A stretch of DNA of 64,000 bases from Candidatus Poribacteria bacterium (GTDB lineage Bacteria > Poribacteria > WGA-4E > WGA-3G): the NCBI GenBank assembly GCA_963665235.2, contig CAXXLX010000002.1, positions 224,001-288,000 on the forward strand. The letters run 5' to 3'. Shown here one piece after another: positions 23,201-46,951 of this stretch. How positions within the stretch are numbered: the first letter of the stretch is position 1; each line of letters starts with the position of its first letter. The translations under genes were made by a program, and so were the position numbers. The notes under the pieces were generated by a model. The model was given only the letters and a program-made list of their open reading frames with translations, ran no database searches and was not told the origin of the DNA.

Positions 23201-23355
23201 TATCATATTTTATAATGGATAATGAGTCTCAATATCAATTATGAAAAAGTTGCAACATAAATTGGCATTTATTCGTCTATATATACAAGGGGAAATATTA
23301 TTTTCTATCTATGCTAGATTTTTACAAATTATTTTTGCTACAAAGGAGAAACGAA

Positions 23356-26889: not shown

Positions 26890-28044
26890 TCATTTTGGCG
26901 GAGGAAGCTTTCCTATTTTGACTAAGCCTGTAAAAAAGAATTCAAAGTTTTTGAAAAGCTTCTTAATTGCTGCAATAGCTGTATTGCTGCTCCGCGCGTC
27001 GGGACGCATCCCACAGTGGGCAAGGTCATTTCGAGTCCCATTACAAGCACTCCAAAGTTTGTCCAAAGGGAGTTTGGATTTTGCAGCAAATCGCGTGTTT
27101 AGCGCATGCTCAGCCTCCGCTCGCTGCGGAAGATCCAATAAATTGGGGGATGTTCGATGTATTTGAAGAAGCTCCCAAGACACTAACCATTCGCGAATCA
27201 AGGTTATAGCATGGAGATAGTGTAGGTTATCAATATACCACTTGATTTGCACATACTGCCCTGTGAGGCTTTCTCGTGGACTTAATGCCGGATCCCCCAC
27301 ACTGATTCCTGCATAGGTGTCCTTTACTTGATCTACCAAAATGTGAAATGGGGCCTCGAGTCTGTCCAAAGTTTCTGGACGTTCTAGCCTTCTAATAAGT
27401 CTTGGCACTGCTTCTTGTGCTTCAAGGGTTCGATTTGTAAGAAGTGCATCCGACAAAGTCGTGAGCTCCCGACGAATAGTGCTTACACCCCCCAACCCGG
27501 CGAGTTGCCGCGCATCTCCCGAGTGCTGGAAGACATTAACAGCATTCGTCCAATTCAACAGATCTACAAAAGGCGTTAAGTCGAAAATCGGGGTCTCATT
27601 TTTAGAGGTATCCCGTGCTTCATACGCACCATAAATAATATGCTTAAGTTCGACATCTTTAACTTGGCGCAAGTAAGCCGAAACGATGAAAACGAGTAAG
27701 GGGATAGAACGGAACGCATGCGTAATATCAAGGATAATTTCGTCCTTGAGTTCGACAGTCTTTGCACATACATCAAAAATTTCCCACAGTTCCTCTGGTG
27801 AGTTACCATTTTGAATCTCCTGTGTACAAAAGTTGCTGATGTCTTCTTCGAGACCCTCTATAACTTTGGCCTTAGCTGATTTCACTTTTGGGGTAACAAA
27901 CGCTATGATTTTATCTGGTTCATAAAGTTCCGCTACGGCTTTAGGAAATAGATCTGTCTTACAAGTCTTACAAGGATCATCATGCTTGACATAGGTCGTT
28001 TCATCATAGTTTCCAAGACCTATAAAAGTAAGTGCCTTTAACAT
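26890..28044 (-). CDS. csx1: Csx1/TM1812-family CARF-HEPN ribonuclease
   Basis: TFIGLGNY, DITHAFRS (DxTHG-like), YGAYEA..FDLT, HEPN motif RNDLAH. Confidence 0.88.
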   Translation of the reverse strand: MLKALTFIGLGNYDETTYVKHDDPCKTCKTDLFPKAVAELYEPDKIIAFVTPKVKSAKAKVIEGLEEDISNFCTQEIQNGNSPEELWEIFDVCAKTVELKDEIILDITHAFRSIPLLVFIVSAYLRQVKDVELKHIIYGAYEARDTSKNETPIFDLTPFVDLLNWTNAVNVFQHSGDARQLAGLGGVSTIRRELTTLSDALLTNRTLEAQEAVPRLIRRLERPETLDRLEAPFHILVDQVKDTYAGISVGDPALSPRESLTGQYVQIKWYIDNLHYLHAITLIREWLVSWELLQIHRTSPNLLDLPQRAEAEHALNTRFAAKSKLPLDKLWSACNGTRNDLAHCGMRPDARSSNTAIAAIKKLFKNFEFFFTGLVKIGKLPPPK

Positions 28045-28654: not shown

Positions 28655-30218
28655 TTTTCTTGCTAATTGCCATTCGCCATTTGCCATTCGCCATTTCGCA
28701 TTCCCTTCAAACGGGAAAGCACATGTGTCATTGGCTATTAGCTGTTAGCAATTAGCAGTTGGCAAGAGGTTTTGTTGTAACAATCTACCCGTTCCTATCA
28801 TTCCAAGCCAAAGTATCGCGAACTTGGACAGCACACGACTGTTTGCCAGGAGCTTCCTCTTGCTATTCGCCATTTGCCATTTGCCATTTCCCATTCCGTT
28901 CAAACGGGAAAGGACATGTGGTATTGGCAGTTGGCAGTTAGCAATTGGCTATTGGCAAGAGGGGGTGTTGTCACAATCTAACCGTTGTTAGCATTCCAAC
29001 TATAATCGAACCGATACGGAATGTTCGGGACGCAATGTCACAATCTAACCGTTGTTAGCATTCCAAGCCAAAGTAACGCGAACTTTTACAACACACGCCT
29101 GTTTGCTAGGCGCGTTCTCTTGCTATTTGCTAATCGCCATTTGCCATTCGCCATTTCGCATTCCGTTCAAACGGGAAAGGACATGTGGTATTGGCAGTTG
29201 GCAGTTTAGCAATTGGCAAGTTGGCAAGAGGACTCTGACACCTGTCAAAAACTTGCTTAGAAACACAACATCTTGCTATTCACATCTTGGCTATTTCCTA
29301 AAGTGGCTGTTGGAAACTGTTCGCTATTCGCAACCGTGGGCAAGAGGTCTCTGACGCACGTCAAAAACCTGCTTAGAAACACAACATCTTGCTAATCGCC
29401 ATTTGCCATTCGCCATTCGCCATTTCGCATTCCCTTCAAACGGGAAAGCACATGTGTCATTGGCTATTGGCTGTTGGCTATTGGCTGTTGGCAAGAAGGC
29501 TCTGGCGCAGGTCAAAAAATCGCTTAGCATCACAACATCTTGTTGTTGTTCGCCTCTTTGCTCTTTGCTAAAGTGACTGTTGGGAACCGTGGGCAAGAGG
29601 GCTCTGGCGCAGGTCAAAAACCTGCTTAGCATCACAACATCTTGCTAATCGCCATTTGCTAATCGCCATTCGCCATTTCGCATTCCCTTCAAACGGGAAA
29701 GCACATGTGTCATTGGCTATTGGCTGTTGGCTATTGGCTGTTGGCAAGAAGGCTCTGGCGCAGGTCAAAAAATCGCTTAGCATCACAACATCTTGTTGTT
29801 GTTCGCCTCTTTGCTCTTTGCTAAAGTGACTGTTGGGAACCGTGGGCAAGAGGGCTCTGGCGCAGGTCAAAAACCTGCTTAGCATCACAACATCTTGCTA
29901 ATCGCCATTTGCTAATCGCCATTCGCCATTTCGCATTCCCTTCAAACGGGAAAGCACATGTGTCATTGGCTATTGGCTGTTGGCTATTGGCTGTTGGCAA
30001 GAAGGCTCTGGCGCAGGTCAAAAAATCGCTTAGCATCACAACATCTTGTTGTTGTTCGCCTCTTTGCTCTTTGCTAAAGTGACTGTTGGGAACCGTGGGC
30101 AAGAGGGCTCTGGCGCAGGTCAAAAACCTGCTTAGCATCACAACATCTTGCTAATCGCCATTTGCTAATCGCCATTCGCCATTTCGCATTCCCTTCAAAC
30201 GGGAAAGCACATGTGCAC
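28655..30218 (-). repeat. Degenerate array tail: 7 truncated CRISPR repeat cores separated by heptamer-repeat elements
   Basis: Cores ATTCC(C/G)TTCAAACGGGAAAG(C/G)ACATGTG at ~28700, 28893, 29160, 29429, 29682, 29935 and 30188. The last three intervals are 253 bp each. Confidence 0.9.
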
Positions 30219-33200
30219 GTATCATGGCCGGGGGCGAAAGAGGGGGGGAGAAATTTGTTTCAATTCCCTTCAAACGGGAAAGCACATGTGCACGCACTAC
30301 TCCTGGCACTGGTGGTTGCTGCTTCCTGTGTTTCAATTCCCTTCAAACGGGAAAGCACATGTGCACGAAAATGATTACTACTATTTTTTTCACGCTGTTA
30401 AGTTTCAATTCCCTTCAAACGGGAAAGCACATGTGCACGAAGTCATCATCCAGAACGATGTAATCGTCAGTGGTGAGTTTCAATTCCCTTCAAACGGGAA
30501 AGCACATGTGCACCTCAACTTGATTACAATGGTCGCACTGCTGGCAACGTTTCAATTCCCTTCAAACGGGAAAGCACATGTGCACCCTTCGTGAATCCGG
30601 ACTGAAGTTGATCAAGATGCTGGTTTCAATTCCCTTCAAACGGGAAAGCACATGTGCACGAATTACAGATACGGAAATTGCCAAGCGGATTTACAAGTTT
30701 CAATTCCCTTCAAACGGGAAAGCACATGTGCACGAAAGGATAAAGTAATGTTGAATTTAAAAGGAATAACAGTTTCAATTCCCTTCAAACGGGAAAGCAC
30801 ATGTGCACTTGAGATGGCAGAAAAAGGCCTAAAGGATGACATGAGTTTCAATTCCCTTCAAACGGGAAAGCACATGTGCACAAAGCTCAAAAGCAGCTTG
30901 AAAAAGAGCTTGAGGCCCTGGTTTCAATTCCCTTCAAACGGGAAAGCACATGTGCACGCTTGAAAAAGAGCTTGAGGCCCTGATGGCTGAAGAAGGTTTC
31001 AATTCCCTTCAAACGGGAAAGCACATGTGCACGAAGCAACCGTTCTGATCTCAAGAACCAGTACAAAGGTTTCAATTCCCTTCAAACGGGAAAGCACATG
31101 TGCACCGGGATGTGGATACATTTTACGATGTGTTATTAAATAGTGTTTCAATTCCCTTCAAACGGGAAAGCACATGTGCACTCGAGAAAAACGTCGTAAA
31201 GCTGCTTTAGAGGCCGAGTTTCAATTCCCTTCAAACGGGAAAGCACATGTGCACATTTCATAAACCAGGCATGGACCTTCACAGGCACAGCAGTTTCAAT
31301 TCCCTTCAAACGGGAAAGCACATGTGCACTGTTGAAAAAAGCTTTCACAATCGCAACATTAACTGGTTTCAATTCCCTTCAAACGGGAAAGCACATGTGC
31401 ACGAAAAATTGGGTTGTTTGTGTATTTTTGTTTTTTGGGCACGTTTCAATTCCCTTCAAACGGGAAAGCACATGTGCACAAATAGATAAAACAAGGAGGC
31501 GAATTCTGCTTGTTATAGTTTCAATTCCCTTCAAACGGGAAAGCACATGTGCACGAAATTTAAAAATTTGGCTACTTTGGTATTGATTTGTTTCAATTCC
31601 CTTCAAACGGGAAAGCACATGTGCACCGCTTTTGTTTTCGTTTTTGTTTTCGCTTTCGTCAGTTTCAATTCCCTTCAAACGGGAAAGCACATGTGCACTT
31701 GTTTAAGTAGTTTAGAGGTTGGCAAGTCTCAACGGTTTCAATTCCCTTCAAACGGGAAAGCACATGTGCACAACGATGGTTCCCTTGCAAGGAATTATAA
31801 CCGCGAGTTTCAATTCCCTTCAAACGGGAAAGCACATGTGCACAAATCGCGGCACGATGGAGAACAGGTACAAAGATTTAAGTTTCAATTCCCTTCAAAC
31901 GGGAAAGCACATGTGCACAGCTGCTAGATGCCACTGAGGAATTGGCGGAGGCGGGTTTCAATTCCCTTCAAACGGGAAAGCACATGTGCACACTTTCCAA
32001 AATGCTCAGCAGCGAGGAAGTAACGACAAGTTTCAATTCCCTTCAAACGGGAAAGCACATGTGCACTGCTGCAAAATAAGGAGTCAATAAAATGACACGT
32101 AAAGTTTCAATTCCCTTCAAACGGGAAAGCACATGTGCACGAAACGATCTCACGCCCGAGGAATCACTAAAGGCTTTAGAGTTTCAATTCCCTTCAAACG
32201 GGAAAGCACATGTGCACGGTCGGTTCCGCGGCTGCGTTTTTCCTTTACAGGAAGTGTTTCAATTCCCTTCAAACGGGAAAGCACATGTGCACGAGAAGGC
32301 AACGGTTGCCGGACTAAAATCATATCTCCGAGAAGTTTCAATTCCCTTCAAACGGGAAAGCACATGTGCACCTATTGGCTTTCGCTTTCATGGCTTTCGC
32401 AGCTCCCAGTTTCAATTCCCTTCAAACGGGAAAGCACATGTGCACGAAAATTCTTATAGACTGCTCGTCCTATGATTATGATGTTTCAATTCCCTTCAAA
32501 CGGGAAAGCACATGTGCACAAGGGTATTGGATCTCCGCAACGTTGCTAATGAGAGTTTCAATTCCCTTCAAACGGGAAAGCACATGTGCACGCACGAAGC
32601 ACGGAATAATTTCCTCTACGACATGGAGCTCTGTTTCAATTCCCTTCAAACGGGAAAGCACATGTGCACAACAGTTGGTCTATTCGTTGCCTGATTCGTG
32701 GGTTAGTTTCAATTCCCTTCAAACGGGAAAGCACATGTGCACAAACAGGCTTCTCAAAAGTTAGAACAAGAAAAGGAGCTGTTTCAATTCCCTTCAAACG
32801 GGAAAGCACATGTGCACTAGGAGGAGAAGGAGGTGGAGTATAATGGCGTTAATAGCGTTTCAATTCCCTTCAAACGGGAAAGCACATGTGCACCGACAAC
32901 ATGAAGCAGATGGTTGCTTTTTACCGTGACATGTTTCAATTCCCTTCAAACGGGAAAGCACATGTGCACGCTCCTGTATGGACCAGGAAACTGAATCGTT
33001 CTTTCTTGTTTCAATTCCCTTCAAACGGGAAAGCACATGTGCACCAATTAACTAAACTAATGGGGTCTCTGTACCCCGAGGAGTTTCAATTCCCTTCAAA
33101 CGGGAAAGCACATGTGCACGAGGACTTATGTCCAAGTCCAAAACTTATTTCGGCTTGTTTCAATTCCCTTCAAACGGGAAAGCACATGTGCACTGCATCA

Positions 33201-33493
33201 GATCCAATGGTTGGTGAACGTGCAAGTAGATGTTTCAATTCCCTTCAAACGGGAAAGCACATGTGCACCAAGACCCTCAAAAAAGGTTTGGAGGCAAAAG
33301 AAGTTTCAATTCCCTTCAAACGGGAAAGCACATGTGCACGTAACTATAAACTTCATAACGCATATGGCTTTAAGGAGGTTAAGTTTCAATTCCCTTCAAA
33401 CGGGAAAGCACATGTGCACACATTACGAGCGTATGGAGTATACCGACAGGTATATTGTTTCAATTCCCTTCAAACGGGAAAGCACATGTGCAC
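30188..33493 (-). CRISPR. CRISPR array: 44 full 37-bp repeats plus one truncated terminal repeat, 44 spacers of about 34-43 nt
   Basis: Minus-strand repeat GTGCACATGTGCTTTCCCGTTTGAAGGGAATTGAAAC with canonical ATTGAAAC 3' end and a TTCCC/GGGAA stem. Leader faces cas1. Counted by eye. Confidence 0.98.
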
Positions 33494-33790
33494 TTACCCT
33501 ATTTTCGACCCACTCCACGCTTGACTCCGGAACCCCTGATTCAAACGCGAACTGCGCGGGGCTTTTTTTTACTCAAAAATTGGAGCGAAAATCGCCTAAA
33601 CCCTTATGAATACTGACTCAAACGCGATTTTTACCGAAAAACACGAGAGAATTCAGTCACCGTATAGGTTTATGGGCTATTTCATCAAGCGATTCAGCTC
33701 AAGGTCGAATCGCGTTTGTTTTACGTTATTAAGTATACCACAGATTTGCATAAATGTCAAATTTTTTTTGCGATTTTTTTCAAAAAAACG
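33494..33790 (-). promoter_or_regulatory. CRISPR leader with sigma70 promoter
   Basis: Minus strand TTGACA (33760-33755) N17 TATACT (33737-33732); AT-rich. Confidence 0.75.
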
Positions 33791-34062
33791 AAAATTTCGT
33801 AATTTTAGCGGATAAATGCGGAGGGGGGTGGAAGAGGGGAAGGGGGAAGGATGGAAGAGGTCATAACATGCAGTCAGATGGATAGCAATCGTGCGCGTGG
33901 GTGGAAGGATGGAAGAGGGGAAAGGAGGCAAGATGGAAAGATGAAAGAAGCATCCAAAACGACATCGCAGCCGGAGATGCAAAAAAGAAGGGGGAAGGAT
34001 GGAAGAGGAGAGGTGGGGGACAGATGTCCCCCACGTAGCGGGTCTAAAGTTTCACTAAATCT

Positions 34063-35049
34063 CTAAAGGAGAAACGGTTTGTATGCTGGCTCTTCGCCTG
34101 TAATTACGCGTGCCAGATGACGTGCCTGAAGTTCAATACAACGTAGGTAGGTCGTTTTCTCATTTCGTGCGGTGTCTTGGAAGGTCTGTTGCATCCGCCC
34201 GTAATAACCGACGAGAAAACGATCGAGTGCCTCCTTGGTGAATCGGATCCCTTTGGTTGTCTCTTCAAAGTCCTCCGGTTGCACCCGGTTGTTGTTGACG
34301 AGCGATAGCACATAGCCATCTACGATAATCTGTCGGAACTCCTCCATCAGATCGGAGGCTAATGTGGCATGCCCGTGTTTGGGTTGATGAAAATAACCGC
34401 AGTATGGATCGAATCCGACGACGTTGCTGAAGGCATACACGTGGTTGTATAGGAGCGTGTAGCCGAGTGAGAGCATGGCGTTAATCGGATCGGGGGGTGG
34501 TCGAAACTGCCGTGTTGTAAACTTCCAATCGTTTGAGAGAAATTGTCGGAAGGCACGGTAATATGCGGCGGTGCCTGCGCCTTCATATCCGAGCAGGGAT
34601 TCCAAATTTTGCGCTCCCTCAAGATTTTGGAGCGGCTTCTGAATTCCGCTGATGGCGGATTCGATTTCTGCGTTTTGCGTTCGTTGCCGTTTGCAGAAAC
34701 GGATTGCGTTTTTCAGCTTGCCACGCACAAATCCTTTTGCGAGTTCAAGACACTGCTGCGGATCGGCTGCTACGGTGTATTGACGTTGCCGGATGAGGAC
34801 ATCTCTGGCGTAGCCGGGTTGAAGTCTCCCTTTGTATGTGCCCCGTGAAGAGAGGAACGATACGGGAATGCCTTTGTTGAGTAAGTATCCCATCGTTTGT
34901 GTTGTGAGGTGACCGTTGCCGAAGATGATGACTTCGTCTAGTTGCACAATCGGGATTTCCTGAAGCACTTCGCGATTTTTTTTGACGATGACCTGGTTAC
35001 CAGATTTGTGAAGAACAGCTCCCTGTTGTGTGATGTAAAGAATTGCCAT
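34063..35049 (-). CDS. cas1: Cas1
   Basis: LYITQQG, LLGYEG..A..YY, RPPPDPINAMLSLGY, HQP..GH.TLASDLMEEFR. Confidence 0.97.
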   Translation of the reverse strand: MAILYITQQGAVLHKSGNQVIVKKNREVLQEIPIVQLDEVIIFGNGHLTTQTMGYLLNKGIPVSFLSSRGTYKGRLQPGYARDVLIRQRQYTVAADPQQCLELAKGFVRGKLKNAIRFCKRQRTQNAEIESAISGIQKPLQNLEGAQNLESLLGYEGAGTAAYYRAFRQFLSNDWKFTTRQFRPPPDPINAMLSLGYTLLYNHVYAFSNVVGFDPYCGYFHQPKHGHATLASDLMEEFRQIIVDGYVLSLVNNNRVQPEDFEETTKGIRFTKEALDRFLVGYYGRMQQTFQDTARNEKTTYLRCIELQARHLARVITGEEPAYKPFLL

Positions 35050-35081: not shown

Positions 35082-35508
35082 ATACCATTTTTATTAATTA
35101 TTCTATCATTACCGGTTGTTAGAAATGAAACGGAGAACGGAAGACACAAACTATAAGTTTATGCTACTACAAAGACGCACAAACTGGAAGTTTATGCTAC
35201 TACAAAGACGCACAAACTGGAAGTTTATGCTACTACAAAGACGCACAAACTGGAAGTTTATGCTACTACAAAGACGCACAAACTATAAGTTTATGCTACT
35301 ACAAAGACGCACAAACTGGAAGTTTATGCTACTACAAAGACGCACAAACTGGAAGTTTATGCTACTACAAAGACGCACAAACTATAAGTTTATGCTACTA
35401 CAAAGACGCACAAACTGGAAGTTTATGCTACTACAAAGACGCACAAACTGGAAGTTTATGCTACTACAAAGACGCACAAACTGGAAGTTTATGCTACTAC
35501 AAAGACGC
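35082..35508. repeat. MITE family B left end followed by 11 x 33-bp REP tandem
   Basis: ATACCATTTTTATTAATT..GGAAGAC head identical to 61499 and 63466. Unit ACAAACT(GG/AT)AAGTTTATGCTACTACAAAGACGC spans 35146-35508. Confidence 0.9.
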
Positions 35509-35526
35509 AAATTTAACAGGACCATC

Positions 35527-35714: not shown

Positions 35715-37151
35715 TTAAGCCTTTGTTTTCTGTGTGTCCCGTTTTTTGAAACGGCCGCCAAGCTGCGTAGCAATATTTTTCCCACGCTGGGCGGCATGTT
35801 GCACGGGCCGCGCGACTTGTGCTGCACCCCGTTTTAAGGCGTGTTGTACCTGGTTCTGCAAGATTTTCGCTTGCGAGTCGGGGACAGGTTGGTAACAACC
35901 ATCCTTGTCGAAGACGTGTCCGAGGAATTCTACGCTGTCATCGAAACGTGCGATTTGCGTCTTTTTAGGGTTCAATCCTAACTTGAGTGTCGCCAGCCGT
36001 TTTTGTGTTTGCTGTAGTGCATGTCGTGCGCGGCGTTCATTTCTGGTTAGGATGAGCAGGTCGTCTGCGTATCGCACAAGCCGTATACCTGCCCGCGTCA
36101 TCGCCTTGTCGAAGGGGTGCAGGTAGATGTTGGCTAACAAGGGTGAAAGCGGTGAACCCTGTATAATGCCGATTTTGCGTGGGCGACTCAGACGCTCCTT
36201 GACGATACCGCCCACAGTAGGTGCGGCAAGTGTTGCTACGACAAGCGGTGCAGCGAAGAGTAGGTGTTTTGCCGTGAGCCCCATCCATATCCGTTTTGAA
36301 TTTGCAAGGAGTAGTAATACCCCGTCTCGTCCTAAGTTTATTAATGCCTCCTTATTTGCATGAGACCAGAGTCCGTTATCTTTTACACGTTCCAGTTCGT
36401 CAATTTCCCAGGAATCTTCGGGCGGTATGGGTTGCATATCGCCGTATTCATCGGCATAATAGACGTTTTCAGGTGGTGTGCTAAGTCCTGAGCCGCGTTG
36501 CAGGATTTGGCTCATGACCCGTTCGACCCCCGCGCCTAAGCAGTGGGCGGTGTTTTCAATATGGGTGCTCCATGTCGGAAGCTTGGGCGGTTGTAAGATG
36601 CCTCCCATATCCAGCCACATCTGAATGAGGCGTAAGATTGCTGGCTCTTTCAGTGATGCCCGCAGAAAACGCATGAGAATTTGTGTGTCCATTCTGTCAA
36701 AGAAGTTCTCAATGTCCGCGTGAACGACCCATTCGTATCCCTCCGCTCGGATGGCGTTTACCTGGGCAACTGCATGGGGTACGCCGCGATTGGGACGGTA
36801 TGCGAAGCTGCACTCCAGGAATTTTGCCTCGTAAATCGGGGTGATGAGGTCGCAAACGGCACGTTGAACAATCCGATCTTTTAATGTCAGCACAGCGAGT
36901 TCGCGTGGGGTGCCGTTTGACTTCTTAATGATGAACTTCCGAAGTGGAAGCGGGTAATACCGTTCTTCAGCCAGCTCACGCGAGAGTTGACGGAGATGTT
37001 TCGCAAGGTTCGCCTCAAACTGTTGAATGGTAACGCCATCGCTACCGGGCCCTCCTTTGTTGCTTCGCACTTTTCGCCACGCGGCATGTAGGGTTTCGGG
37101 TTGACAGAGTTGTGTTGTGAGTGAATTATTTGGTGATGTGTAATCAAACAT
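35715..37151 (-). CDS. CRISPR-associated group II intron-like reverse transcriptase (stand-alone, with internal insertion)
   Basis: AWRKVRSNKGGPGSDG, RELAV..DRIVQ, SFAYRP, ADIENFFD, QGSPLSPLLANIYL, RYADD, FLG; lies between cas2 and cas1. Confidence 0.93.
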   Translation of the reverse strand: MFDYTSPNNSLTTQLCQPETLHAAWRKVRSNKGGPGSDGVTIQQFEANLAKHLRQLSRELAEERYYPLPLRKFIIKKSNGTPRELAVLTLKDRIVQRAVCDLITPIYEAKFLECSFAYRPNRGVPHAVAQVNAIRAEGYEWVVHADIENFFDRMDTQILMRFLRASLKEPAILRLIQMWLDMGGILQPPKLPTWSTHIENTAHCLGAGVERVMSQILQRGSGLSTPPENVYYADEYGDMQPIPPEDSWEIDELERVKDNGLWSHANKEALINLGRDGVLLLLANSKRIWMGLTAKHLLFAAPLVVATLAAPTVGGIVKERLSRPRKIGIIQGSPLSPLLANIYLHPFDKAMTRAGIRLVRYADDLLILTRNERRARHALQQTQKRLATLKLGLNPKKTQIARFDDSVEFLGHVFDKDGCYQPVPDSQAKILQNQVQHALKRGAAQVARPVQHAAQRGKNIATQLGGRFKKRDTQKTKA

Positions 37152-37830: not shown

Positions 37831-39288
37831 CTACGGTGTGCTGAGCCCTGCATCAATTATCTGCAGCAATAACCGCTTACGGGTATGTTGTTCTCGGAGG
37901 TCTGCGAAATAAACACGCCACTGCTCTTCTTGACCAAGGTGCTGATAGAGTGCCCTTAATTCTATTAAATATGCCGAAACTTTCTCGTAAGCTTCACGTT
38001 TTCGGAAAAGCGCGGTCTGTTCAATAAGACTTTGATAGAGCAAAATGGCGGTATCGGGATAGTGTTGACCAAGAAGTGTGAGCAGCCGTTCGGTGAAATC
38101 TGGGATACGTTTGACAATTGGGCCCTGCAAAAGGGACGCGTATTCGGCAACGGATAGGGGGAATTCTTCAACTGCTTTCCATGCTGCATCGTCGCGCTGC
38201 TGTGTGAACAGCGCGTGTATCAACCGATACCCCTCCTTTTCACGTAGGGCAAGCTGGAGGTAATCTTCAGTTCGCTCATCGCGAAAATATAGGGCAAGTA
38301 AAAGTTGAACGTGTGCCTGTCGCTCGGGGCTTTCATCGAGACGTTGTTCAATTGTTGTGTGTAAATCTGATGGATTTTGCATTGCACAGAGCTGTTCAAG
38401 GTGGTGTGTGAGGATAGGTGTGAATACCGGTGCTGCTTCAAAACTGAGTGACAGCAGCAGGCGGCAGTGTTCAGACAAGGTCTCAGGTGTAGCCCCGGTG
38501 TTTTTGAAACCTACTGACATCGGCTCTTGCGTGTTGAGGACAATGCGCGTGAACTGCTTTGTGCATTTTTTAACAAATCGGGGCAATTCATTCCGCTGGA
38601 GCGTGTCAGGATAATGCACAATTGATTGGTGTATGAGAGCATGGAGGAGGGCGAGCGCGAATTCCGTTTCGCCTACCTGTGCAAGTGATTCGGCATGCAT
38701 GAGGAGCTCTTCAAGTTGAGCTAACACCTGTTGAAGTTGATGTTGTTCCAGAAAGCTGTCTCCAAAAATGGTGTTGAGCTGTTCTCGGTAAGCCGTAACG
38801 AGTGGAATCGGGTCAGTTTGAGGGGGTGTATCCGGAATATCTGTCCATCCCTGCACTACACGTGCCAATGCTGGCCTTCGCTTGAGCATCTCCATAATGA
38901 TGTGCAAAAGCTGTTCCTTCGGTTTTTTCGCAAGCGTAGCAAGCAGGGTGTCGACAGAACAGAGCACCTCCGGCGCGTGAATGTAGGTCAACAGCAGTGC
39001 GACGATATGCTTACAATCTCCTTCACCGCCGTAAGGACATGAACAGGACGCGGCGGCAATCCCTGTGGGTATCAATTCCACAGACACCTTATACGGTTTC
39101 GGATATGTCCCGCGGCATGTTGCTGACAACGTATAGCCGTGGAGTACCGGGTTGCCAATTGCGCCATCGTGGAAGTATTCCAGGCCGCGTGTGAAACTCC
39201 GTTCTGTGCAGCGGTGTTTTATCTGAGCGTAGGTAAGGTGAGGACTTTGCATATCAAACCACGATTGTCTTGGGCTCTGATGTGACAT
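37831..39288 (-). CDS. SWIM zinc-finger domain protein with helical C-terminus
   Basis: SFTRGLEYF, CSCPYGGEGDCKHIVALLL (CxC..CxH); overlaps the cas2 3' end. Confidence 0.85.
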   Translation of the reverse strand: MSHQSPRQSWFDMQSPHLTYAQIKHRCTERSFTRGLEYFHDGAIGNPVLHGYTLSATCRGTYPKPYKVSVELIPTGIAAASCSCPYGGEGDCKHIVALLLTYIHAPEVLCSVDTLLATLAKKPKEQLLHIIMEMLKRRPALARVVQGWTDIPDTPPQTDPIPLVTAYREQLNTIFGDSFLEQHQLQQVLAQLEELLMHAESLAQVGETEFALALLHALIHQSIVHYPDTLQRNELPRFVKKCTKQFTRIVLNTQEPMSVGFKNTGATPETLSEHCRLLLSLSFEAAPVFTPILTHHLEQLCAMQNPSDLHTTIEQRLDESPERQAHVQLLLALYFRDERTEDYLQLALREKEGYRLIHALFTQQRDDAAWKAVEEFPLSVAEYASLLQGPIVKRIPDFTERLLTLLGQHYPDTAILLYQSLIEQTALFRKREAYEKVSAYLIELRALYQHLGQEEQWRVYFADLREQHTRKRLLLQIIDAGLSTP

Positions 39289-39529
39289 CCCCCACAGCAG
39301 GCACTTCGACCCGTCCTACACAAGCATTACAGAGTGCATAGTAGCGAACTGAATCCTTATCAGGGTCTATGATGTTCACAACGGCGCGTTTCATTTGATC
39401 AAATTGGGAATGGGTGAGATGCGCTTCAAAGACGCTGTACTGGACGCGGGTGCCGAACCCTTTGAGTGTTTTGGCGAGTTGGGTGCGCCGCTGGTCGTCC
39501 GGAATGTCGTAAGAGATTACATAGAACAC
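39254..39529 (-). CDS. cas2: Cas2
   Basis: YVISYDIPDD.RR, GTRVQYSVFE, DSVRYY. GTG start after a GGAGG RBS. Confidence 0.95.
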   Translation of the reverse strand: MFYVISYDIPDDQRRTQLAKTLKGFGTRVQYSVFEAHLTHSQFDQMKRAVVNIIDPDKDSVRYYALCNACVGRVEVPAVGDVTSEPKTIVV

Positions 39530-39610: not shown

Positions 39611-40579
39611 CTAAGGAAACACCCCGACGATGTGGTACTGTCCATATCCGAATGCTGTATGATGCCCGATATGTAGATATTTGCCGAGAACGATTAGCGG
39701 AAGGAAGGGTTTTATGTCCCCCTCAAAACGAATCTTGCCTCTGAATCCACTCATCGGAACTGATGTCTCCTGCCGATAAGAATATCTATCTCGCGGTAAC
39801 CACTGCAAACCGGAGGTATGCCTGACACCGCTGGCTTCCTTGATTAGGGCGGGTGCGTCTACGTCCAAATCCTCGCCGCAGTGACATAAACTCAAGAAAC
39901 GGATACGCCGGAGCAGGTTGCGGATGAGATGTTCAAACGTCAGATTGCTTGTCCAGCGTCCGTTGACCTTTATGCTGGTGGGGGTGAGAAAATCAAGTTC
40001 AAGTTCATCTGTAATGTGAGGTGCAACTCGTCCCACGTCATCAAGTCCGAGCAGGAGTCCATCGTCTGTCAGCATCTGATCCGTTGCGGTGTAGATTGTG
40101 TGACCCGGCTCTTCATCGGACGCGGGTAGGCTTTCGACTGTTTCCAGTAAACACCGCCCGCGCTGGTCTTTAAGTCCGATTCGTTGGATGCCCATCCTGT
40201 GGAAGGTAAATACCATCCATGGGAGTACCGCTATCGCCTCTCCGATGAGGATCAGATTACACTTGAAGGTGTCGCCTGGAGCGTATCGGACTTTGCCGGT
40301 ACGGGGTGGTTCAAGTACGAACGGATGTGGTGCGTACGTCTGTCCTCGGAGGACAGGACTGTCCTGCGGCACTGGCGTTTCAAAGCATCTGGAGTAGACG
40401 CATTGGTCCGGAAAGTGACACTGGTTTTCGCACTGCTGTTCGGTGCCGATGCAGACGGTGTGCCGGAGGACGTATCCAAATCTGCCTCTGAAGATGTTGC
40501 CTTTGTAGGCTGGCATCTTCAGGGGCTCTTGGACGGTGTATGTGAAGCGGTAACGCGCGAAGCGGAAGTTTTTGAGCAT
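39611..40579 (-). CDS. cas6: Cas6 crRNA processing endoribonuclease
   Basis: FRGRFG, PHPFVLEP, FLTPT, G-rich loop HIGHHTAFGYG. Start inferred at MLKNF (the ORF track starts at 40678). Confidence 0.88.
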   Translation of the reverse strand: MLKNFRFARYRFTYTVQEPLKMPAYKGNIFRGRFGYVLRHTVCIGTEQQCENQCHFPDQCVYSRCFETPVPQDSPVLRGQTYAPHPFVLEPPRTGKVRYAPGDTFKCNLILIGEAIAVLPWMVFTFHRMGIQRIGLKDQRGRCLLETVESLPASDEEPGHTIYTATDQMLTDDGLLLGLDDVGRVAPHITDELELDFLTPTSIKVNGRWTSNLTFEHLIRNLLRRIRFLSLCHCGEDLDVDAPALIKEASGVRHTSGLQWLPRDRYSYRQETSVPMSGFRGKIRFEGDIKPFLPLIVLGKYLHIGHHTAFGYGQYHIVGVFP

Positions 40580-40595
40580 GGGGGTTGTTGGTTCA

Positions 40596-41336
40596 TTACG
40601 CATCAGCGTTAGTCTTGGTTGCTTCAGCATCCGCATCCGAGTTAGGACATGTTGTTTCCGCGGGTTCCGACTCTGCACAAAGTAGGTCAGTAGACGGTAT
40701 TAAGGGCGTTTTGTCTGATTTGCGTACGAGTGCCACAAGGGCAGCATCAACAATACCTGCTAAATGGTATTTGGGGTCATAGTCTACTACTTGTTTGAGT
40801 TCTAGCCGTAGGGGCAAGTTCTTTTCTGCCAATTTTACATCCTTCAACGGTGGTATCCAGATTTCTGCTCCTCGGTCTTCTCGCAATTTTACCCAGCGTG
40901 TCTGTGTGCATTTAACGTCGGTACCCCACAAGGCGTGGTATTCTGTTAGAGCCTCTCTCTTTTTCCGAGACTTTTCTGGATTGTCCTGATCGTTTTCATT
41001 ACAACCGATCCAAACGTGCTTTTCGTCTTCGACATCAAATTCCAGCAGGCGTGCATAATGTTTGCCATCCCAATCTCGCCAGACGTGCCATTCGCCTTTC
41101 TCACCGAAAAGACGGAGATCGCTCACCAGTTCCCAATCCGGTTTCCATTTTGATTCTTTTTCCGATTCTGATTCTTTATATGGGGGCCAGCAGATGTCGT
41201 TTGGGGATACTACGCCAAAGCCGATAAACCCTGGTTCTTGCACCAAAACCCATGCTAAATCTTTTTCGGTAACATTGGACAGATGGCCACAAACCCATGA
41301 TTCATTGAGTTCTTCTATATGCGTTTTATTCGGCAT
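40596..41336 (-). CDS. csx19: Csx19 (TIGR03984-like) type III-D subunit
   Basis: DLRLFGEKGEWHVWR and LWGT motifs plus operon position. Start inferred at MPNKTH. Confidence 0.75.
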   Translation of the reverse strand: MPNKTHIEELNESWVCGHLSNVTEKDLAWVLVQEPGFIGFGVVSPNDICWPPYKESESEKESKWKPDWELVSDLRLFGEKGEWHVWRDWDGKHYARLLEFDVEDEKHVWIGCNENDQDNPEKSRKKREALTEYHALWGTDVKCTQTRWVKLREDRGAEIWIPPLKDVKLAEKNLPLRLELKQVVDYDPKYHLAGIVDAALVALVRKSDKTPLIPSTDLLCAESEPAETTCPNSDADAEATKTNADA

Positions 41337-42840
41337 CGGAATCCTCCTTGTCATTCTTCTTAGGTCGCCGTGATCCTTTAGGACGATCGGTATAGCTCTG
41401 CGCTGCATCGACACAGCATTGGAGAAAACCGGCATCACCATTTTCAACCGTCATGCGTTTGTCTTCGTCTTTTTTCAATTTCCATTCCCTTGTATTAGAT
41501 GGATCGGGGTCATCTTTATATATCAATTTTGCTGCGATACCTCGGAGTGTGCCGCGTCCGTTGCTTGTCTCCCCACCGAGAGCGGCATGTCCATACCAGA
41601 AATCCCGCAATGTCAACAGCAGTAAACCGATCTCCGCGTCGCCCGGTTCCTCCAACGTGAGTATTAACCGAAGATTGGATGCCGATTCTTTTTCAGCGAT
41701 TTCATCGAGACTAATCGGATAAACAGGCTTTTCGTTAAATAGGGCACCATCCAAGCTGCCACCAGTAAAGCGATCGATAGCAACACGATCTTGCCACTGA
41801 TATCGCACATTTTTCACTAGCTGCTCCTCAATCCTAACTCGACTTGCACGCGCATCCGGTTCCTGGTTCTTATCACCTTTTTCATAGACGTAACCAAACA
41901 TTTTGTCAACTGATTTCTCTGACCAACCAATAGTTTTCGCGATTAAGGTAGCACGATGGCGGAATGCACCGCCAAAGGAAGTTCCAGGAACAACGGGCTC
42001 TCCATCGGACTGTAGGTGTATCATGTCTGGGTCATCTGGATTTCCAGAGGAACTACGGATTAGCAGGGAGGTACACAGCTCAAAGTTAGCTTCAATACGG
42101 AAGTATCGTCGGTAATCGGATGGCAATGAGCGTATTTCTAAAGAGCTCGGGTCTCGAGACCAAGGATCGTCTCGGAGCCATGACATGACATCCTCCGGGT
42201 TGTTCATTTGCAAATCGCGTATTTGCCAAGTGCCTACTTTACCGCAACCATAACCGCGACGGGTGCGCGCACCTAATCGGATATTCCCATCCTGAAATCC
42301 GTGCAGAAGTGCCAAAAACAGTGCTGTTAAATCATAGTTCTTGTCCCCTTCACGAATCACACATTCCAGATTCAGTTCAAACTCGGTACCACGTTCAACA
42401 ACTTCTACATCAAACTTTGCTTTGTCCGCAGCGGATCCTGATTGTTTGTCCACGCGGACACCGTCTCGAGTTGATGTCGTCGCTTGCATACAGTGAGCAT
42501 CAGCAACTGTCAGAGCACTCATCGGGTCGGACTTCTCCACGGTATCTGCTTTTTCTGACCCACCGAAAAATCTTTTGAATTCTGATGATTCTTTGGTATG
42601 TCCTCCTTGATATTGCTTCCACGGTAAACTCTGGTGAGCGAGAAAGCTCCGTGCAGCACCAGTAATGGAGGCCCCAGGGATAAAAGGTTTCCCGGCTTCA
42701 TCCCTCAAGAGACACATATCTGCTATTCCAGTTTCGTCGCCGCCAAAGTGTGCTACACTCTCTAGTTTCCATGTCCCACGCGCATATAAGCGGCGGACAA
42801 CAGCATCATCCATAGGTTTTATGGTTGTTGTATTTGCCAT
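41326..42840 (-). CDS. cas7: Cas7-Cas7 (Csm3-like double RAMP)
   Basis: Two RAMP units: IPGASITG..LGARTRRGYG and VPGTSFGG..IDRFTGG..LGGETSNGRG. Confidence 0.88.
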   Translation of the reverse strand: MANTTTIKPMDDAVVRRLYARGTWKLESVAHFGGDETGIADMCLLRDEAGKPFIPGASITGAARSFLAHQSLPWKQYQGGHTKESSEFKRFFGGSEKADTVEKSDPMSALTVADAHCMQATTSTRDGVRVDKQSGSAADKAKFDVEVVERGTEFELNLECVIREGDKNYDLTALFLALLHGFQDGNIRLGARTRRGYGCGKVGTWQIRDLQMNNPEDVMSWLRDDPWSRDPSSLEIRSLPSDYRRYFRIEANFELCTSLLIRSSSGNPDDPDMIHLQSDGEPVVPGTSFGGAFRHRATLIAKTIGWSEKSVDKMFGYVYEKGDKNQEPDARASRVRIEEQLVKNVRYQWQDRVAIDRFTGGSLDGALFNEKPVYPISLDEIAEKESASNLRLILTLEEPGDAEIGLLLLTLRDFWYGHAALGGETSNGRGTLRGIAAKLIYKDDPDPSNTREWKLKKDEDKRMTVENGDAGFLQCCVDAAQSYTDRPKGSRRPKKNDKEDSDAE

Positions 42841-42875
42841 TACATTGTTTCCTATCTTTTTCTTTATTCTTTAGC

Positions 42876-45290: not shown

Positions 45291-46933
45291 TCTTTATTTT
45301 CCTCTCTGTCATCTACATTACCGGTTTCTGGTTGGACTTCTATCCAGAAGTCGAGCACTTCGAGCGGATCGAAGTAGGGCGTGGTCGGGGCATCACCACC
45401 TGTCCATCCGGTGGCCCTTGCATCGCCCCCTACACCGGATGATGGCAACTCCACATTACGCCATTGTGCCCCCTTAATGAAATGTTCACTTGCCACTGGA
45501 CCTTGCGTTAGAGCGTGTAAGAGACCTTTAGCACGATTGCGGGGCCACCCCGACGATTGGAAACCCTTTAAAATTGAGATAAAATTGTTCCAATTGTCCG
45601 AACCTATTGACACCTCATAGGGGCGTTGATGCAGTACTTGTCCTTCAAGGCTGCGATACTGCACTTCTCTTAGAGCTGTAATGGATCGGGTAGCACCTTC
45701 TTGAATAATCTGAAAGTCTAACCAACTACCTTTTGAATCTCCTTCTTCACGACGGTATCGCTTGGCCAGCGCACAAAGTTCATCAGCAAAACCGTAAGCC
45801 CGGGCAAATGGGAACTTCGTTGGCACGATCGTGATGCCCGCGCACGCATCAACAGATTCTTTCTTGCCACAGACTTGAATGTTGCCAGAAGAAAACGCTT
45901 TTAGATAGAACGCGGCAAGATGGAGCCCAACACGACCATCGCAAACAAATGTCAAATCATCACCACCGTACACAATTGGACGCAGCGGGAATACCTCCGG
46001 CGGATTGTGAAGTGCCTCCAGCGGCAAAGTAGCCTTGAAGTGCAGTAATGTTGCCTCTAAGGCCCTATGAGACAGGTCTGTCGTAGAAGCCGAAAACGCG
46101 CGCAGATTATGGAGGAATTCGGCATCTTCTTGAGATTCTTTGTCCACTACTCGGTTGAGCCGCTCTCCCATTCCGTTACCATCTGCATGGACTATAGCAA
46201 TGTGGGATTCACCTTCGCTACCTCCTAATTCCTCTCCAAGTTCAATGGCGAAACGTTGTCCATCTGGCAAGTCATTCCCTGCTGAAAGAACCTTGGAAAA
46301 TTCATTTGCAATAGAGTCCTGAGCAGGCCCGGGAGCCTGTTGAGAGCCAACCTGATTTCGCTTACTCACTGCAGCTAGCGAGATCCACTGTTGGTCTTCT
46401 TTGCTAAGCATACTTGCCGGAAGTTCGGTAGTGGTACAAGAACGAACAATAGGCAAACTATAGAGAGTTGAACCAAACGGAAGTGCTTCCTCACAAGCAG
46501 ACAGATCGTCCAATGCCGTACGATACGCCTCGGCAAATGTGGCATTTACATCTCCATATCCAACGGCGATACGAAGTGCCGGAGCCTTATATAGCAGCTG
46601 GCAGCTCCACGCCGAGACTGCCCGGCGCGCAGTATCTCGGCTACTGCATAACAAGGCAGCGTTTCCACCACCGACATAGAGGAGATTGACATCTGAAGAT
46701 GCTGACAGTGCTTCCGAAAGCGCGGGAATAGACTTGGGTATGCTCTGTTGGTACTTATCCCAGCAGTCTGTGTTAACAGCAAGTCCTGTCCCCTGGATAG
46801 ATTCAATCATACCTTCTTTGAGCCAATATTTTGCCAAATAGGATGCCCCAATATTCTCCTTCAAATGGTTGCTCTGAAAGACATATTTCTGAAGACTAAC
46901 AGTACCGAAAACCAAAATGCACTGAATTGACAT
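45287..46933 (-). CDS. cas10: Cas10 (type III-D, no HD domain, intact cyclase palm)
   Basis: YVGGGNA, VHADGNGMG, YGGDDLTF, KFPFARAY..A.ELC..AK. Confidence 0.92.
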   Translation of the reverse strand: MSIQCILVFGTVSLQKYVFQSNHLKENIGASYLAKYWLKEGMIESIQGTGLAVNTDCWDKYQQSIPKSIPALSEALSASSDVNLLYVGGGNAALLCSSRDTARRAVSAWSCQLLYKAPALRIAVGYGDVNATFAEAYRTALDDLSACEEALPFGSTLYSLPIVRSCTTTELPASMLSKEDQQWISLAAVSKRNQVGSQQAPGPAQDSIANEFSKVLSAGNDLPDGQRFAIELGEELGGSEGESHIAIVHADGNGMGERLNRVVDKESQEDAEFLHNLRAFSASTTDLSHRALEATLLHFKATLPLEALHNPPEVFPLRPIVYGGDDLTFVCDGRVGLHLAAFYLKAFSSGNIQVCGKKESVDACAGITIVPTKFPFARAYGFADELCALAKRYRREEGDSKGSWLDFQIIQEGATRSITALREVQYRSLEGQVLHQRPYEVSIGSDNWNNFISILKGFQSSGWPRNRAKGLLHALTQGPVASEHFIKGAQWRNVELPSSGVGGDARATGWTGGDAPTTPYFDPLEVLDFWIEVQPETGNVDDREENKE

Positions 46934-46951
46934 CGTATATTCCTCACTTAC

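Follow-up and report, generated by a model that had tools for sequence, protein, structure and literature searches.

Reverse transcriptase (RT)-linked type III CRISPR systems have been described in several bacteria, and how they choose and orient their spacers is still presented as an open question in the accessible part of PMC10828431. According to the same source, the RT-Cas1-Cas2 complex of Fusicatenibacter saccharivorans, employed in Record-seq, acquires AT-rich spacers that lie mostly near start or stop codons, are preferentially antisense and have no PAM. That RT forms a fusion with Cas6 and Cas1 and was studied by over-expression in Escherichia coli. The available text on the RT-Cas1/Cas2 of Marinomonas mediterranea (10.1101/2023.09.01.555893) describes end signatures at the spacer-repeat junctions, where the additional bases are not coded and mostly A, and cDNA synthesis by snap-back as well as by run-off; spacers occur in either orientation, evenly along RNAs. 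The type III-D RT-Cas1 system of Vibrio vulnificus, as outlined in PMC6821258, acquires new spacers without a PAM and with an antisense bias in respect of coding sequences, its RT is fused to Cas1 and two Cas2 proteins are present; the accessible part of PMC10828431 reports no start- or stop-codon bias for it. [quoted passage not shown] The RT-linked type III arrays of the cyanobacterium Arthrospira platensis (type III-B, fused RT-Cas1, no type I system) are hyperdiverse with almost no database matches, and almost no spacers of natural RT-linked arrays have been mapped so far, according to the available sections of PMC5513706. Finally, clades 3 and 5 of the RT-CRISPR phylogeny of Toro et al. 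2017 comprise group-II-like RTs in type III loci, from cyanobacteria only in the part of PMC5541045 at hand.

The window, that is, the whole stretch of 64,000 nucleotides of a Candidatus Poribacteria genome that was analyzed, carries effector genes, cas6, cas2, a gene for a SWIM protein, a standalone RT gene, cas1, a leader and 44 spacers, in this order on the minus strand. The effector genes (40596..50499, minus strand) were assigned by profile matches as csx19 (40596-41447; TIGR03984, 63 bits at a cut-off of 35), a csx7-type RAMP (41326-42840; TIGR02581, 123 bits, cut-off 108), a csx10-like gene (42876-45290; TIGR02674, 101 bits, below the cut-off of 177), a Cas10 palm2-like gene (45287-46933; PF22335, 28.9 bits, cut-off 27), a gene without assigned family (46952-48082), and a TIGR03986 RAMP with an N-terminal RNA-binding domain (48082-50499; 304 bits, cut-off 161). 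The Cas10-type, Csx10-like and Csx19 proteins and several Cas7-type RAMPs together make up a predicted type III-D gene set. They are accompanied on the same strand by cas6 (39611..40678; Pfam CRISPR_Cas6 at residues 228-348, with a long N-terminal extension), cas2 (39311..39526; PF09827, 86.9 bits, open frame of 103 aa), a gene for a 485-aa protein with a SWIM zinc finger at residues 66-102 and no family for the rest (37831..39288), the RT gene (35715..37151) and a standalone cas1 (34063..35049; Pfam Cas_Cas1, 314 bits; TIGR00287, 311 bits). An accessory protein of CARF type (TIGR02221 / DxTHG family, C-terminal half without a family) is encoded at 26890..28044, also on the minus strand.

The RT, a protein of 478 aa, is of the group II intron type: RVT_1 was matched with 123 bits in two stretches (about residues 19-183 and 323-413) and TIGR04416 with 275 bits, below its cut-off of 300. 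Its gene lies 665 nt from cas1 in the type III locus, as in an RT-linked adaptation module, and a 33-bp unit is repeated 11 times in tandem between the two genes (35145..35509). RT, cas1 and cas6 are separate open reading frames, so neither an RT-Cas1 nor a Cas6-RT-Cas1 fusion is encoded. Orthologs of the RT in related genomes have about 470-480 aa and adjoin arrays of the same repeat family. Judging by gene content, the locus is a working-type type III-D CRISPR with a standalone group-II-like RT. The same genome also carries a type I-B system with its own arrays.

The CRISPR array (30182..33493, minus strand) consists of 45 repeats, namely 44 perfect 37-nt copies and one degenerate terminal copy (30182-30218), and 44 spacers that are all unique and 34-43 nt long between repeats of constant length. 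In the reverse complement, the repeat forms a UUCCC/GGGAA hairpin and then ends in ATTGAAAC, and the 26 nt kept among the repeats of relatives are this 3' part ending in ATTGAAAC. The degenerate copy stands at the low-coordinate end, opposite the putative leader (33494..33760), in which a sigma-70-like site (TTGACA-17-TATACT, TG-extended, 33760-33732, consensus match only) is located on the minus strand. The initial annotation had proposed that crRNAs are made from the minus strand, and the 3' end of the repeat, the position of the degenerate copy and the promoter-like site all point the same way; the newest spacers are those of the high-coordinate end. The leader ends in TAA in the crRNA sense, and an Rfam search of the leader with the first repeats matched no family. 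The first ~100 nt of the leader were found again beside an orphan mini-array elsewhere in the genome. At the trailer end there is a 253-bp tandem repeat of 3.5 units (29332..30215), each unit of which contains a degenerate copy of the CRISPR repeat (29423, 29676, 29929, 30182). Two adjacent spacers (30882-30920 and 30958-30995, within 30882..30995) have 25 nt in common on the same strand, and together represent a 52-nt piece of one target.

The locus thus resembles several of the described systems in part. Like that of F. saccharivorans, it combines RT-linked type III adaptation with antisense-oriented spacers whose AT content is higher than in the co-resident I-B arrays (GC content 0.42 versus 0.47; GC<=0.38 in 30% versus 19%), whereas its genes are separate and its array is natural. 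It shares with V. vulnificus the combination of type III-D, an RT and an antisense bias of the spacers, and differs in that the RT is not fused to Cas1. It differs from S. thermophilus III-A, a DNA-based Cas1-Cas2 of a Firmicute studied in a plasmid and genome uptake assay, as far as PMC8860593 is accessible. With clade 5 of Toro et al. 2017, which includes RTs unfused to Cas1 in the part of PMC5541045 that could be consulted, the likeness is one of description and not of tree placement. As in A. platensis, where database matches are almost absent, the searches described below found no protospacer, while the type III-D-like effector, the standalone RT and the co-resident I-B system set the two apart (PMC5513706, in its available sections).

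Protospacers were sought at several levels. A BLAST search with the complete array (E<=0.5) revealed none among phage records or plasmids, and blastn-short of the 44 spacers against the own genome gave only chance matches of <=20 nt. Only repeat or repeat-like hits were found in 112 family genomes (two candidates scored per genome) and in 10 complete relatives (all candidates scored), and the overlap of the spacers with 326 spacers of the other arrays of the genome was at chance level. Scans of sequence collections covered 11 of the 44 spacers as exact sub-strings, a format in which diverged protospacers would be missed: no match was obtained in viral contigs for the wobble patterns of spacers 31555 and 30367, for 24-27-mers of 33420, 33194, 32446, 30660 and 30734, or for the 25-mer shared by 30882 and 30958, and no protospacer was found in a metagenome collection (repeat 23-mer and spacer 32141) or in genome contigs (spacer 31403 and repeat 21-mer). 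Public runs (X1-X3) each contained about 4,500-5,000 contigs bearing the repeat, and short contigs that combine it with different spacers number in the thousands.

Ribosome-binding-site and start-codon motifs allow the mRNA-sense character of such an array to be measured even without protospacers. The initial annotation had described the spacers as mRNA-like on the plus strand, citing a ribosome-binding site with ATG in three of them (30734, 32067 and 32818), and these motifs are present. Under a strict definition (a 5-mer Shine-Dalgarno [SD] sequence, N4-10, ATG), the motif occurred on the plus versus the minus strand in a ratio of 4:0 in the 44 spacers and 29:2 in 628 spacers of related arrays (binomial p = 5e-7), as opposed to 5:6 in 298 spacers of the type I-B arrays of the same genome. 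For the array alone the 4:0 ratio gives p = 0.125, so the strand claim leans on the relatives, which are kin and not independent. The ratio of ATG to CAT was 32:17 here, 416:321 in relatives and 162:166 in the I-B arrays, and the purine fraction of the plus strand was 0.554 versus 0.49-0.50 in controls. A codon-based classifier, 79% accurate on host genes, called 28 of 44 spacers sense on the plus strand (p = 0.096). The motif ratios, the ATG:CAT counts and the purine excess agree with the mRNA-like reading and support the view that minus-strand crRNAs would lie antisense to the mRNA of their source.

A preference for translation-initiation regions had been suggested as a possible signature of the RT module, which the comparison of relatives did not bear out. 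Among arrays of the same repeat family, the SD..ATG ratio was 15:1 in 335 spacers with an RT adjacent, 6:0 in 105 spacers of arrays with the RT elsewhere in the genome, and 8:1 in 188 spacers from genomes in which no RT was found by one protein query (E<=1e-30; genomes partly incomplete). The motif was equally frequent in the latter and in the RT-adjacent arrays (Fisher p = 1). Since asymmetry and frequency are equal with and without an RT, they carry no RT signature, although arrays of RT-less genomes may predate the loss of the enzyme. Independence of the RT within one repeat family argues for selection or a property of Cas1-Cas2. Counter-selection, as described for S. thermophilus in the accessible part of PMC8860593, fits this equality. 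Two matches in relatives were also counted for selection rather than for the RT. In G085, a spacer has a perfect 42-nt self-match in the orientation that does no harm, antisense to a cupin gene, and in G084 a spacer matches with two mismatches, in the sense orientation, a site 590 nt into a phage-like structural ORF; that ORF was called from its length, the orientation of neighboring genes and weak PHROG hits, while a log-odds coding score favored the shadow frame. Since interference of type III depends on an antisense guide, we infer that functional selection would be the main reason why most spacers are kept such that their crRNAs are antisense to the mRNAs of invaders; the RT/Cas1 module may contribute an uptake bias.

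Clustering of spacers at gene starts, also proposed initially, proved weak at most. The SD..ATG motif is present in 4 of 44 spacers (9%), where about 1.5 would be expected, an excess of no more than about 2.7-fold over uniform sampling (p = 0.06), with the expectation being a rough uniform-sense rate of ~3.4% derived from the I-B spacers of the same genome. In relatives the motif was found in 4.6% of spacers (29 of 628) against about 3.4% expected (p about 0.06). In this respect the locus departs from F. saccharivorans, where uptake near start codons is reported in the available text of PMC10828431, since near-start enrichment here is not significant.

A related proposal was that spacer boundaries fall inside the start codon (AT|G). 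In its specific form, the AT-rich GAA-starting spacers 30367, 30660, 31403, 31555, 32141 and 32446 (five or six of them) would start at the G of AUG-AAA or AUG-AAU gene starts, with prespacer ends cut or stopped inside the codon; one route would be the copying of leaderless mRNAs almost to the 5' end, with a stop no more than two bases short of it. Gene starts are AT-rich like these spacers, and uptake near start codons is already in print for F. saccharivorans RT-Cas1, where it is also antisense (PMC10828431), and for the RT-less III-A system of S. thermophilus (PMC8860593), in the accessible parts of both papers. The five N-termini put forward (30367, 30660, 31403, 31555 and 32446) translate as written once AT is added, and the peptides MKFKNLATLVLI, MKMITTIFFTLL and MKNWVVCVFLFF resemble membrane or signal N-termini; hydrophobic peptides, however, arise from T-rich sequence in any frame. 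The (AT)G frame is open in six of the nine GAA spacers, including five of the six with GC<=0.38, and is the sole open frame in 31555 and 32446, yet three of the nine contain an in-frame stop, and the open-frame rate is the same in G-starting (12 of 18) and other spacers (17 of 26; Fisher p = 1). Where the preceding bases can be seen, at spacer 30958, whose initial G is templated according to its overlap with 30882, they are CA and not AT. In the 628 related spacers ATG, TG or G is not enriched at the boundary, and the three protospacers mapped in relatives correspond to a tRNA and two mid-gene sites. A boundary inside the start codon is in our view very unlikely even for this AT-rich subset. 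RelE-like A-site cleavage, which predicts the same frame, was rejected because that frame is not enriched. More probably, spacers would sample whole transcripts, with start-site spacers at roughly the frequency expected from sampling and with boundaries that would not be set inside AUG.

The GAA start itself proved robust. The initial counts on the plus strand were exact: 44 spacers, of which 18 begin with G and nine with GAA (30367, 30439, 30660, 30734, 31033, 31403, 31555, 32141 and 32446, within 30367..32482). Compared to an internal GAA frequency of 0.023, the nine starts have a binomial p of 6.4e-7, or about 8e-5 after correction for 64 trinucleotides at two ends, whereas the G start alone (18 of 44 versus 0.245) has p = 0.012. 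Six of the nine begin with GAAA. The GAA spacers are AT-rich (mean GC 0.35 versus 0.44, p = 0.009), making up 6 of 13 AT-rich spacers versus 3 of 31 others, and they are mostly old, with 7 among the 19 oldest and 2 among the 25 newest spacers (p = 0.027). Beyond GAA(A) they have no similarity to one another. In relatives GAA starts 20 of 628 spacers, and no significant 5' trinucleotide was found in the other arrays of >=20 spacers. The GAA bias is thus real, specific to this array, and linked to AT-richness and age. No such end motif is mentioned for F. saccharivorans in the accessible text of PMC10828431.

Read on the strand that is complementary to the crRNA, the motif is 5'-GAA; in the crRNA sense it is ...TTC-3' at the leader-distal end of the spacer. 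Several simple origins do not match this position. Duplicated leader bases would not yield GAA, the leader ending in TAA in the crRNA sense, and a G with which first-strand cDNA synthesis had started de novo is not in line with a G at the crRNA-sense 5' base in just 3 of 44 spacers. A-tailing of the 3' end of either strand gives the wrong bases. This separates the motif from the signatures of M. mediterranea, which resemble instead the relatives, where strands are A-enriched at each 3' end; this A/T end enrichment is, moreover, seen also in arrays of genomes without an RT (10.1101/2023.09.01.555893, in its available part, for the comparison).

Another explanation is a PAM-like end rule, by which the Cas1-Cas2 of this strain, with the RT, prefers prespacer strands ending in ...TTC-3'OH for the attack on the leader-repeat junction. 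For comparison, a C-3'OH is kept from the PAM in type I-E of E. coli. AT-rich sources, with their scarce G/C positions, would reveal the preference best. A very strong bias exactly at the spacer-repeat junction is what such a rule would give, and the repeat of this array departs from those of all relatives at that very end (GCAC versus GAAC, AAAG or AGAG); in addition, four of six further spacers with this repeat from public runs start with G, and the related array L015 has a GA start in 9 of 39 spacers. On the other hand, none of these six run-derived spacers starts with GAA, and the uneven distribution between old and new spacers is not predicted by a fixed enzyme property. The geometry is also unfit for a retained type I PAM, which by Cas1-Cas2 integration chemistry would be expected to leave a strand that begins with TTC or ends with GAA, read 5' to 3'. 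The type III systems studied show no PAM-like uptake motif, as far as the available parts of PMC10828431, PMC6821258 and PMC8860593 go. Overall, we consider an end preference of the integrase rather unlikely.

The shared start could also be a by-product of which spacers were kept, if a few related AT-rich and A-rich targets shaped the array by history and no mechanism was involved. The AT-richness of the GAA spacers, their clustering in the old half, and the restriction of the excess to this array accord with such a history, and the overlapping pair 30882/30958 shows that one target was sampled more than once. Against it, GAA starts 6 of 13 spacers even within the AT-rich class versus about 2% of internal trinucleotides, the nine spacers lack similarity beyond GAA(A), and the corrected p is about 8e-5. 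A purely historical origin is, in our opinion, very unlikely.

We infer instead that GAA(A) would be templated and would mark a preferred end of the source molecules, which would come from a single AT-rich invader, or a small number of them, encountered early in the history of the array. Such ends would most likely be 5' ends of RNAs beginning with G-A-A(-A), which a nuclease could have cut or a polymerase, for instance that of a phage, could have initiated. The RT would copy the RNA to run-off, and the 3' end of the cDNA (...TTC-OH) would become the crRNA-sense 3' end of the spacer. An instructive case comes from the relative G064, where a spacer beside the RT ortholog is a sense/antisense snap-back chimera of tRNA-Ser whose crRNA-sense 3' end reaches tRNA position 1-2, the run-off end of a cDNA at the RNA 5' end. 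DNA uptake does not explain this chimera. The array of the window itself carries no sign of spacers taken from RNA. Snap-back synthesis is described for RT-Cas1 in the accessible part of 10.1101/2023.09.01.555893, and the chimera is a further likeness to M. mediterranea. The start of relatives' spacers on the plus strand is enriched for T (221 of 628) and not for purines, and the last base is A in 240 of 628; therefore, run-off at purine transcript starts is no family rule. According to a stronger proposal, which appears quite unlikely, run-off copying by the standalone RT of this strain, together with its Cas1-Cas2, would capture invader transcripts at their extreme 5' ends, and the nine GAA(A) spacers would represent transcription start sites of one phage, for instance at promoters where a phage-encoded RNA polymerase initiates with GAA(A). 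The account as a whole, comprising the locus, the selected strand bias, the sampling of whole transcripts and GAA as templated 5' ends of invader RNAs, is in our estimation slightly more probable than it is wrong.

The GAA start is a small but clean end signature whose meaning depends on its origin. As a result of history it would be of no wider interest, whereas as a feature of the machinery or of transcript 5' ends it would provide a handle on how prespacer ends are defined. The tRNA-Ser spacer of the relative would be a rare natural sign that self-primed reverse transcription can supply a CRISPR array with spacers. If run-off capture takes place, a leader-side attack by the 3'-OH of the cDNA would account for the antisense orientation, and the array of this bacterium would be a natural CRISPR record of the transcript starts of its invader.

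In the CRISPR array of the window (30182–33493), 44 unique spacers, 34–43 nt long, alternate with 44 identical 37-nt repeats, and a degenerate repeat at 30182 terminates the array. On the + strand the repeat reads GTTTCAAT...GTGCAC, and its reverse complement encodes a UUCCC/GGGAA hairpin followed by the terminal ATTGAAAC. The 26 nt common to 29 related arrays represent this hairpin-plus-tag part, while the remaining 11 nt are variable. The 3' part of the repeat, its conserved 26 nt, the location of the degenerate repeat at the low-coordinate end of the array, and a predicted near-consensus TTGACA-17-TATACT promoter-like site in the leader (33760–33732, minus strand) all indicate that the minus strand is the probable guide RNA sense. 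On the trailer side (29332–30215), a 253-bp unit is present in 3.5 copies, each containing one degenerate CRISPR repeat, and three solitary degenerate repeats were found beyond it (26411, 28694, and 28887). Apparently, the array's old end underwent duplication as a block followed by decay. TTGCCAT/ATTGGCT heptamer repeats are common around the trailer.

Upstream of the array is cas1 (34063–35049), separated by an 11-copy 33-bp tandem repeat from the gene of a standalone group-II-like reverse transcriptase (RT, 35715–37151). These are followed by genes for a SWIM zinc-finger protein, cas2 (39311–39526), cas6, and type III-D-like effector proteins (csx19, csx7-type, csx10-like, Cas10 palm-like, and TIGR03986 RAMP), all on the minus strand. 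Matches of the RT to RVT_1 and to the group II RT model fall into two stretches (approximately residues 19–183 and 323–413); the middle part of about 140 residues matched no family, and orthologs in relatives are of equal length. An RRM-like, RNA-binding domain (NF058537) occupies the N-terminal residues 2–82 of the TIGR03986-type type III RAMP protein (48082–50499). Directly past the effector genes (50558–52737), a PtuA-like AAA ATPase (437 aa) and a DUF4435/OLD-TOPRIM protein (289 aa) are encoded, and the adjacency of this Septu/PtuAB-like pair places the locus in a defense island. A CARF protein gene is located past the trailer of the array. The flanks contain an IS200/IS605-type TnpB gene (14021–15229), a 60-bp tandem repeat in seven copies (22787–23202), and a gene for a 23S rRNA intervening-sequence protein (28234–28596).

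The source genome (G000; 4 contigs, 5.3 Mb) also contains type I-B arrays with a different repeat and 298 spacers, adjoining cas3/5/7/8b/6, and a third repeat type with 28 spacers. An orphan mini-array (L035, C1:459735–459962) has 4 related repeats and 3 spacers, no cas genes nearby, and a leader nearly the same as that of the window array. In one of its spacers, the mRNA-like strand contains GAAGGAG-N7-ATG. About 1.5 kb from the mini-array, C1:461614–461652 differs at a single position from a spacer of the third repeat type (array at C1:3.93 Mb). In one relative (G036, array L020), 23 nt of the last listed "spacer" (index 39) match the type I-B repeat of G000, which may reflect uptake from the DNA or transcript of another array, or a recombination scar.

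No protospacer for the window array was found in phage and plasmid records, its own genome, viral contigs, metagenomes, genome contigs, or relatives; the collection scans used exact sub-strings of 11 of the 44 spacers, which diverged protospacers would escape. Protospacers are likewise near-absent for the RT-linked arrays of Arthrospira, according to PMC5513706. Since the spacers could not be mapped, signals marking the mRNA sense were used for strand tests. The strict motif, a Shine-Dalgarno 5-mer followed after 4–10 nt by ATG, occurred in four window spacers on the + strand and in none on the opposite strand (0.74 in composition-preserving shuffles). ATG outnumbered CAT on the + strand by 32 to 17 (p = 0.044), the purine share was 55.4% versus 49%–50% in other arrays, and a codon-usage classifier with an accuracy of 79% on host 37-mers assigned 28 of 44 spacers to the sense strand (p = 0.096). 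Because these signals are modest alone, related arrays were gathered. The conserved part of the repeat recurred in arrays of 74 of 111 family genomes, and the 29 loci returned yielded 628 unique spacers. Among these spacers, which come from kin, the strict motif was distributed 29:2 between the strands (p = 5e-7; 7.3 in shuffles), and the ATG:CAT ratio was 416:321 (p = 5e-4), versus 5:6 and 162:166 in the type I-B arrays of G000 used as a control. Therefore, the mRNA-sense look of the + strand, with antisense crRNAs, proposed in the initial annotation, is real for this repeat family. The antisense orientation is a general property of the family and is not new for type III systems.

The same annotation regarded the spacer pattern as a possible signature of the RT module. 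RT orthologs (66%–76% identity, also standalone) were found in 29 of 111 relatives, often directly beside these arrays. The strict motif was distributed 15:1 in RT-adjacent arrays (n = 335), 6:0 where the RT gene was elsewhere in the genome (n = 105), and 8:1 in genomes with no RT found (n = 188), a group that is defined by one query at E ≤ 1e-30 and whose arrays may predate RT loss. The frequencies were equal (Fisher p = 1), and spacer ends in the no-RT group had the same composition (T at the first position, A at the last), which argues against an RT signature. In the RT-less type III-A system of S. thermophilus, uptake is orientation-free and strand bias arises through counter-selection, as described in PMC8860593; such selection-made bias agrees with the RT-independent asymmetry observed here. 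Two self-matches in relatives are consistent with selection. A spacer with a perfect 42-nt self-match (L038, G085:C1:3530715–3530756) lies antisense to a cupin gene; pairing of its crRNA with the cupin mRNA is thus impossible. The other, with two mismatches (L036, G084:C3:49229–49264), is in sense orientation inside a repeat-rich phage-like structural ORF of 511 aa; this ORF belongs to a phage-like gene cluster, and the contig is 80 kb long.

The three spacers previously noted to contain a ribosome-binding site and ATG are present as quoted, and the spacers had been suggested to cluster at gene starts. The strict motif is expected in roughly 3.4% of sense-strand 37-mers of the host's invaders, as estimated from type I-B spacers sampling both strands. 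It occurred in 4.6% of spacers in the RT-type arrays (29/628, p = 0.058) and in 9% in the window array (4/44; 1.5 expected; p = 0.060). The three protospacers mapped in relatives corresponded to one tRNA and two sites 400–600 nt inside genes. These data do not establish clustering at starts; a two-fold enrichment is compatible with them. An enrichment of this kind would have precedents, since start-proximal uptake has been reported for the RT-Cas1 of F. saccharivorans (review PMC10828431) and for S. thermophilus III-A (PMC8860593).

The suggested spacer boundary inside AT|G found no support. The (AT)G-NNN frame is open in 12 of 18 G-starting spacers versus 17 of 26 others, and it is closed in three of the nine GAA spacers. 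Neighboring spacers 30882 and 30958 (30882–30995) share a 25-nt same-strand overlap, and the older one, 30882, shows that the starting G of 30958 was templated and preceded by CA. Among the 628 related spacers, ATG occurred at offset 0 seven times versus 11.9 per internal offset, TG-starts numbered 45 versus 41 expected, and G at position 1 was at background. A start-codon origin may still apply to a subset, namely five AT-rich GAA spacers in which this frame is open, being the sole open frame in two. Same-strand overlap of neighbors was also observed in array L015 of a relative (spacers 32/33, 19 nt); relative to the mRNA-like strand, the newer spacer of the window pair is shifted by 14 nt in the 3' direction, and that of the L015 pair by 19 nt.

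The reported counts of G-starts (18/44) and GAA-starts (9/44) on the + strand are exact, and six of the nine GAA spacers begin with GAAA. GAA makes up 2.3% of internal trinucleotides, giving p = 6.4e-7 for its frequency at starts (about 8e-5 corrected for 64 words and two ends); for G-starts alone p = 0.012, and 21 of 44 spacers end with A on the + strand (p = 0.015). In related arrays GAA begins 20 of 628 spacers, and no first trinucleotide was significant in any other array of at least 20 spacers; in L015, GA begins 9 of 39. The GAA bias is therefore a real feature that is specific to the window array. GAA spacers have a lower GC content (0.35 versus 0.44, p = 0.009), constitute 6 of 13 spacers with GC ≤ 0.38 versus 3 of 31 others, and are found mostly in the older half of the array (7/19 versus 2/25 in the newer, p = 0.027). 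No description of a GAA-type end motif was found in the main-text passages of the searched literature, supplements aside.

Leader duplication does not account for GAA because the leader ends with TAA in the crRNA sense. The 3' A-tailing of the M. mediterranea RT-Cas1 kind, as presented in 10.1101/2023.09.01.555893, was also ruled out, as was the 5' G of de novo initiated first-strand cDNA described there, since just 3 of 44 spacers begin with G in the crRNA sense. On the crRNA-sense strand GAA becomes ...TTC-3', which, according to established Cas1-Cas2 chemistry, would be the 3'-OH joining the repeat 5' end on the leader side. The main rival to an origin from templated RNA 5' ends is a strain-specific end preference of the integrase: the repeat of the window array differs from all relatives at exactly that end, and G begins four of six further spacers from public runs, but GAA begins none of them. 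Three sequencing runs of one study (X1–X3) each contained about 4,500–5,000 short contigs with the window repeat and spacers absent from the window, and just 13%–21% of sampled words of 29300–34300 were present. The population behind them has a highly diverse spacer set, and these runs are the obvious data set for the GAA question. One joint in the public runs revealed a second repeat variant with a different end.

What can define a spacer end is illustrated by array L009 of a relative (G064:C8). Its 44-nt spacer 10, located 1.6 kb from the RT ortholog, begins with positions 2–32 of tRNA-Ser(UGA) in sense and continues with antisense sequence of the tRNA 3' end; a 6-nt microhomology, GGCGGT, joins the two parts. 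The source tRNA is found at G000:C1:3540271–3540358 and G064:C153:7575–7606. This spacer looks like the result of snap-back synthesis, with the 3' end of the tRNA as primer and its 5' part as template, and the cDNA extends to tRNA position 1–2, exactly at the repeat boundary. We therefore favor RNA 5' ends as the templated origin of GAA(A): such ends, from one or a few AT-rich invaders and copied to run-off, would give the GAA(A) spacer start. The L009 spacer represents a natural trace of RNA-templated uptake and a natural example of what can set the spacer end in this RT family.
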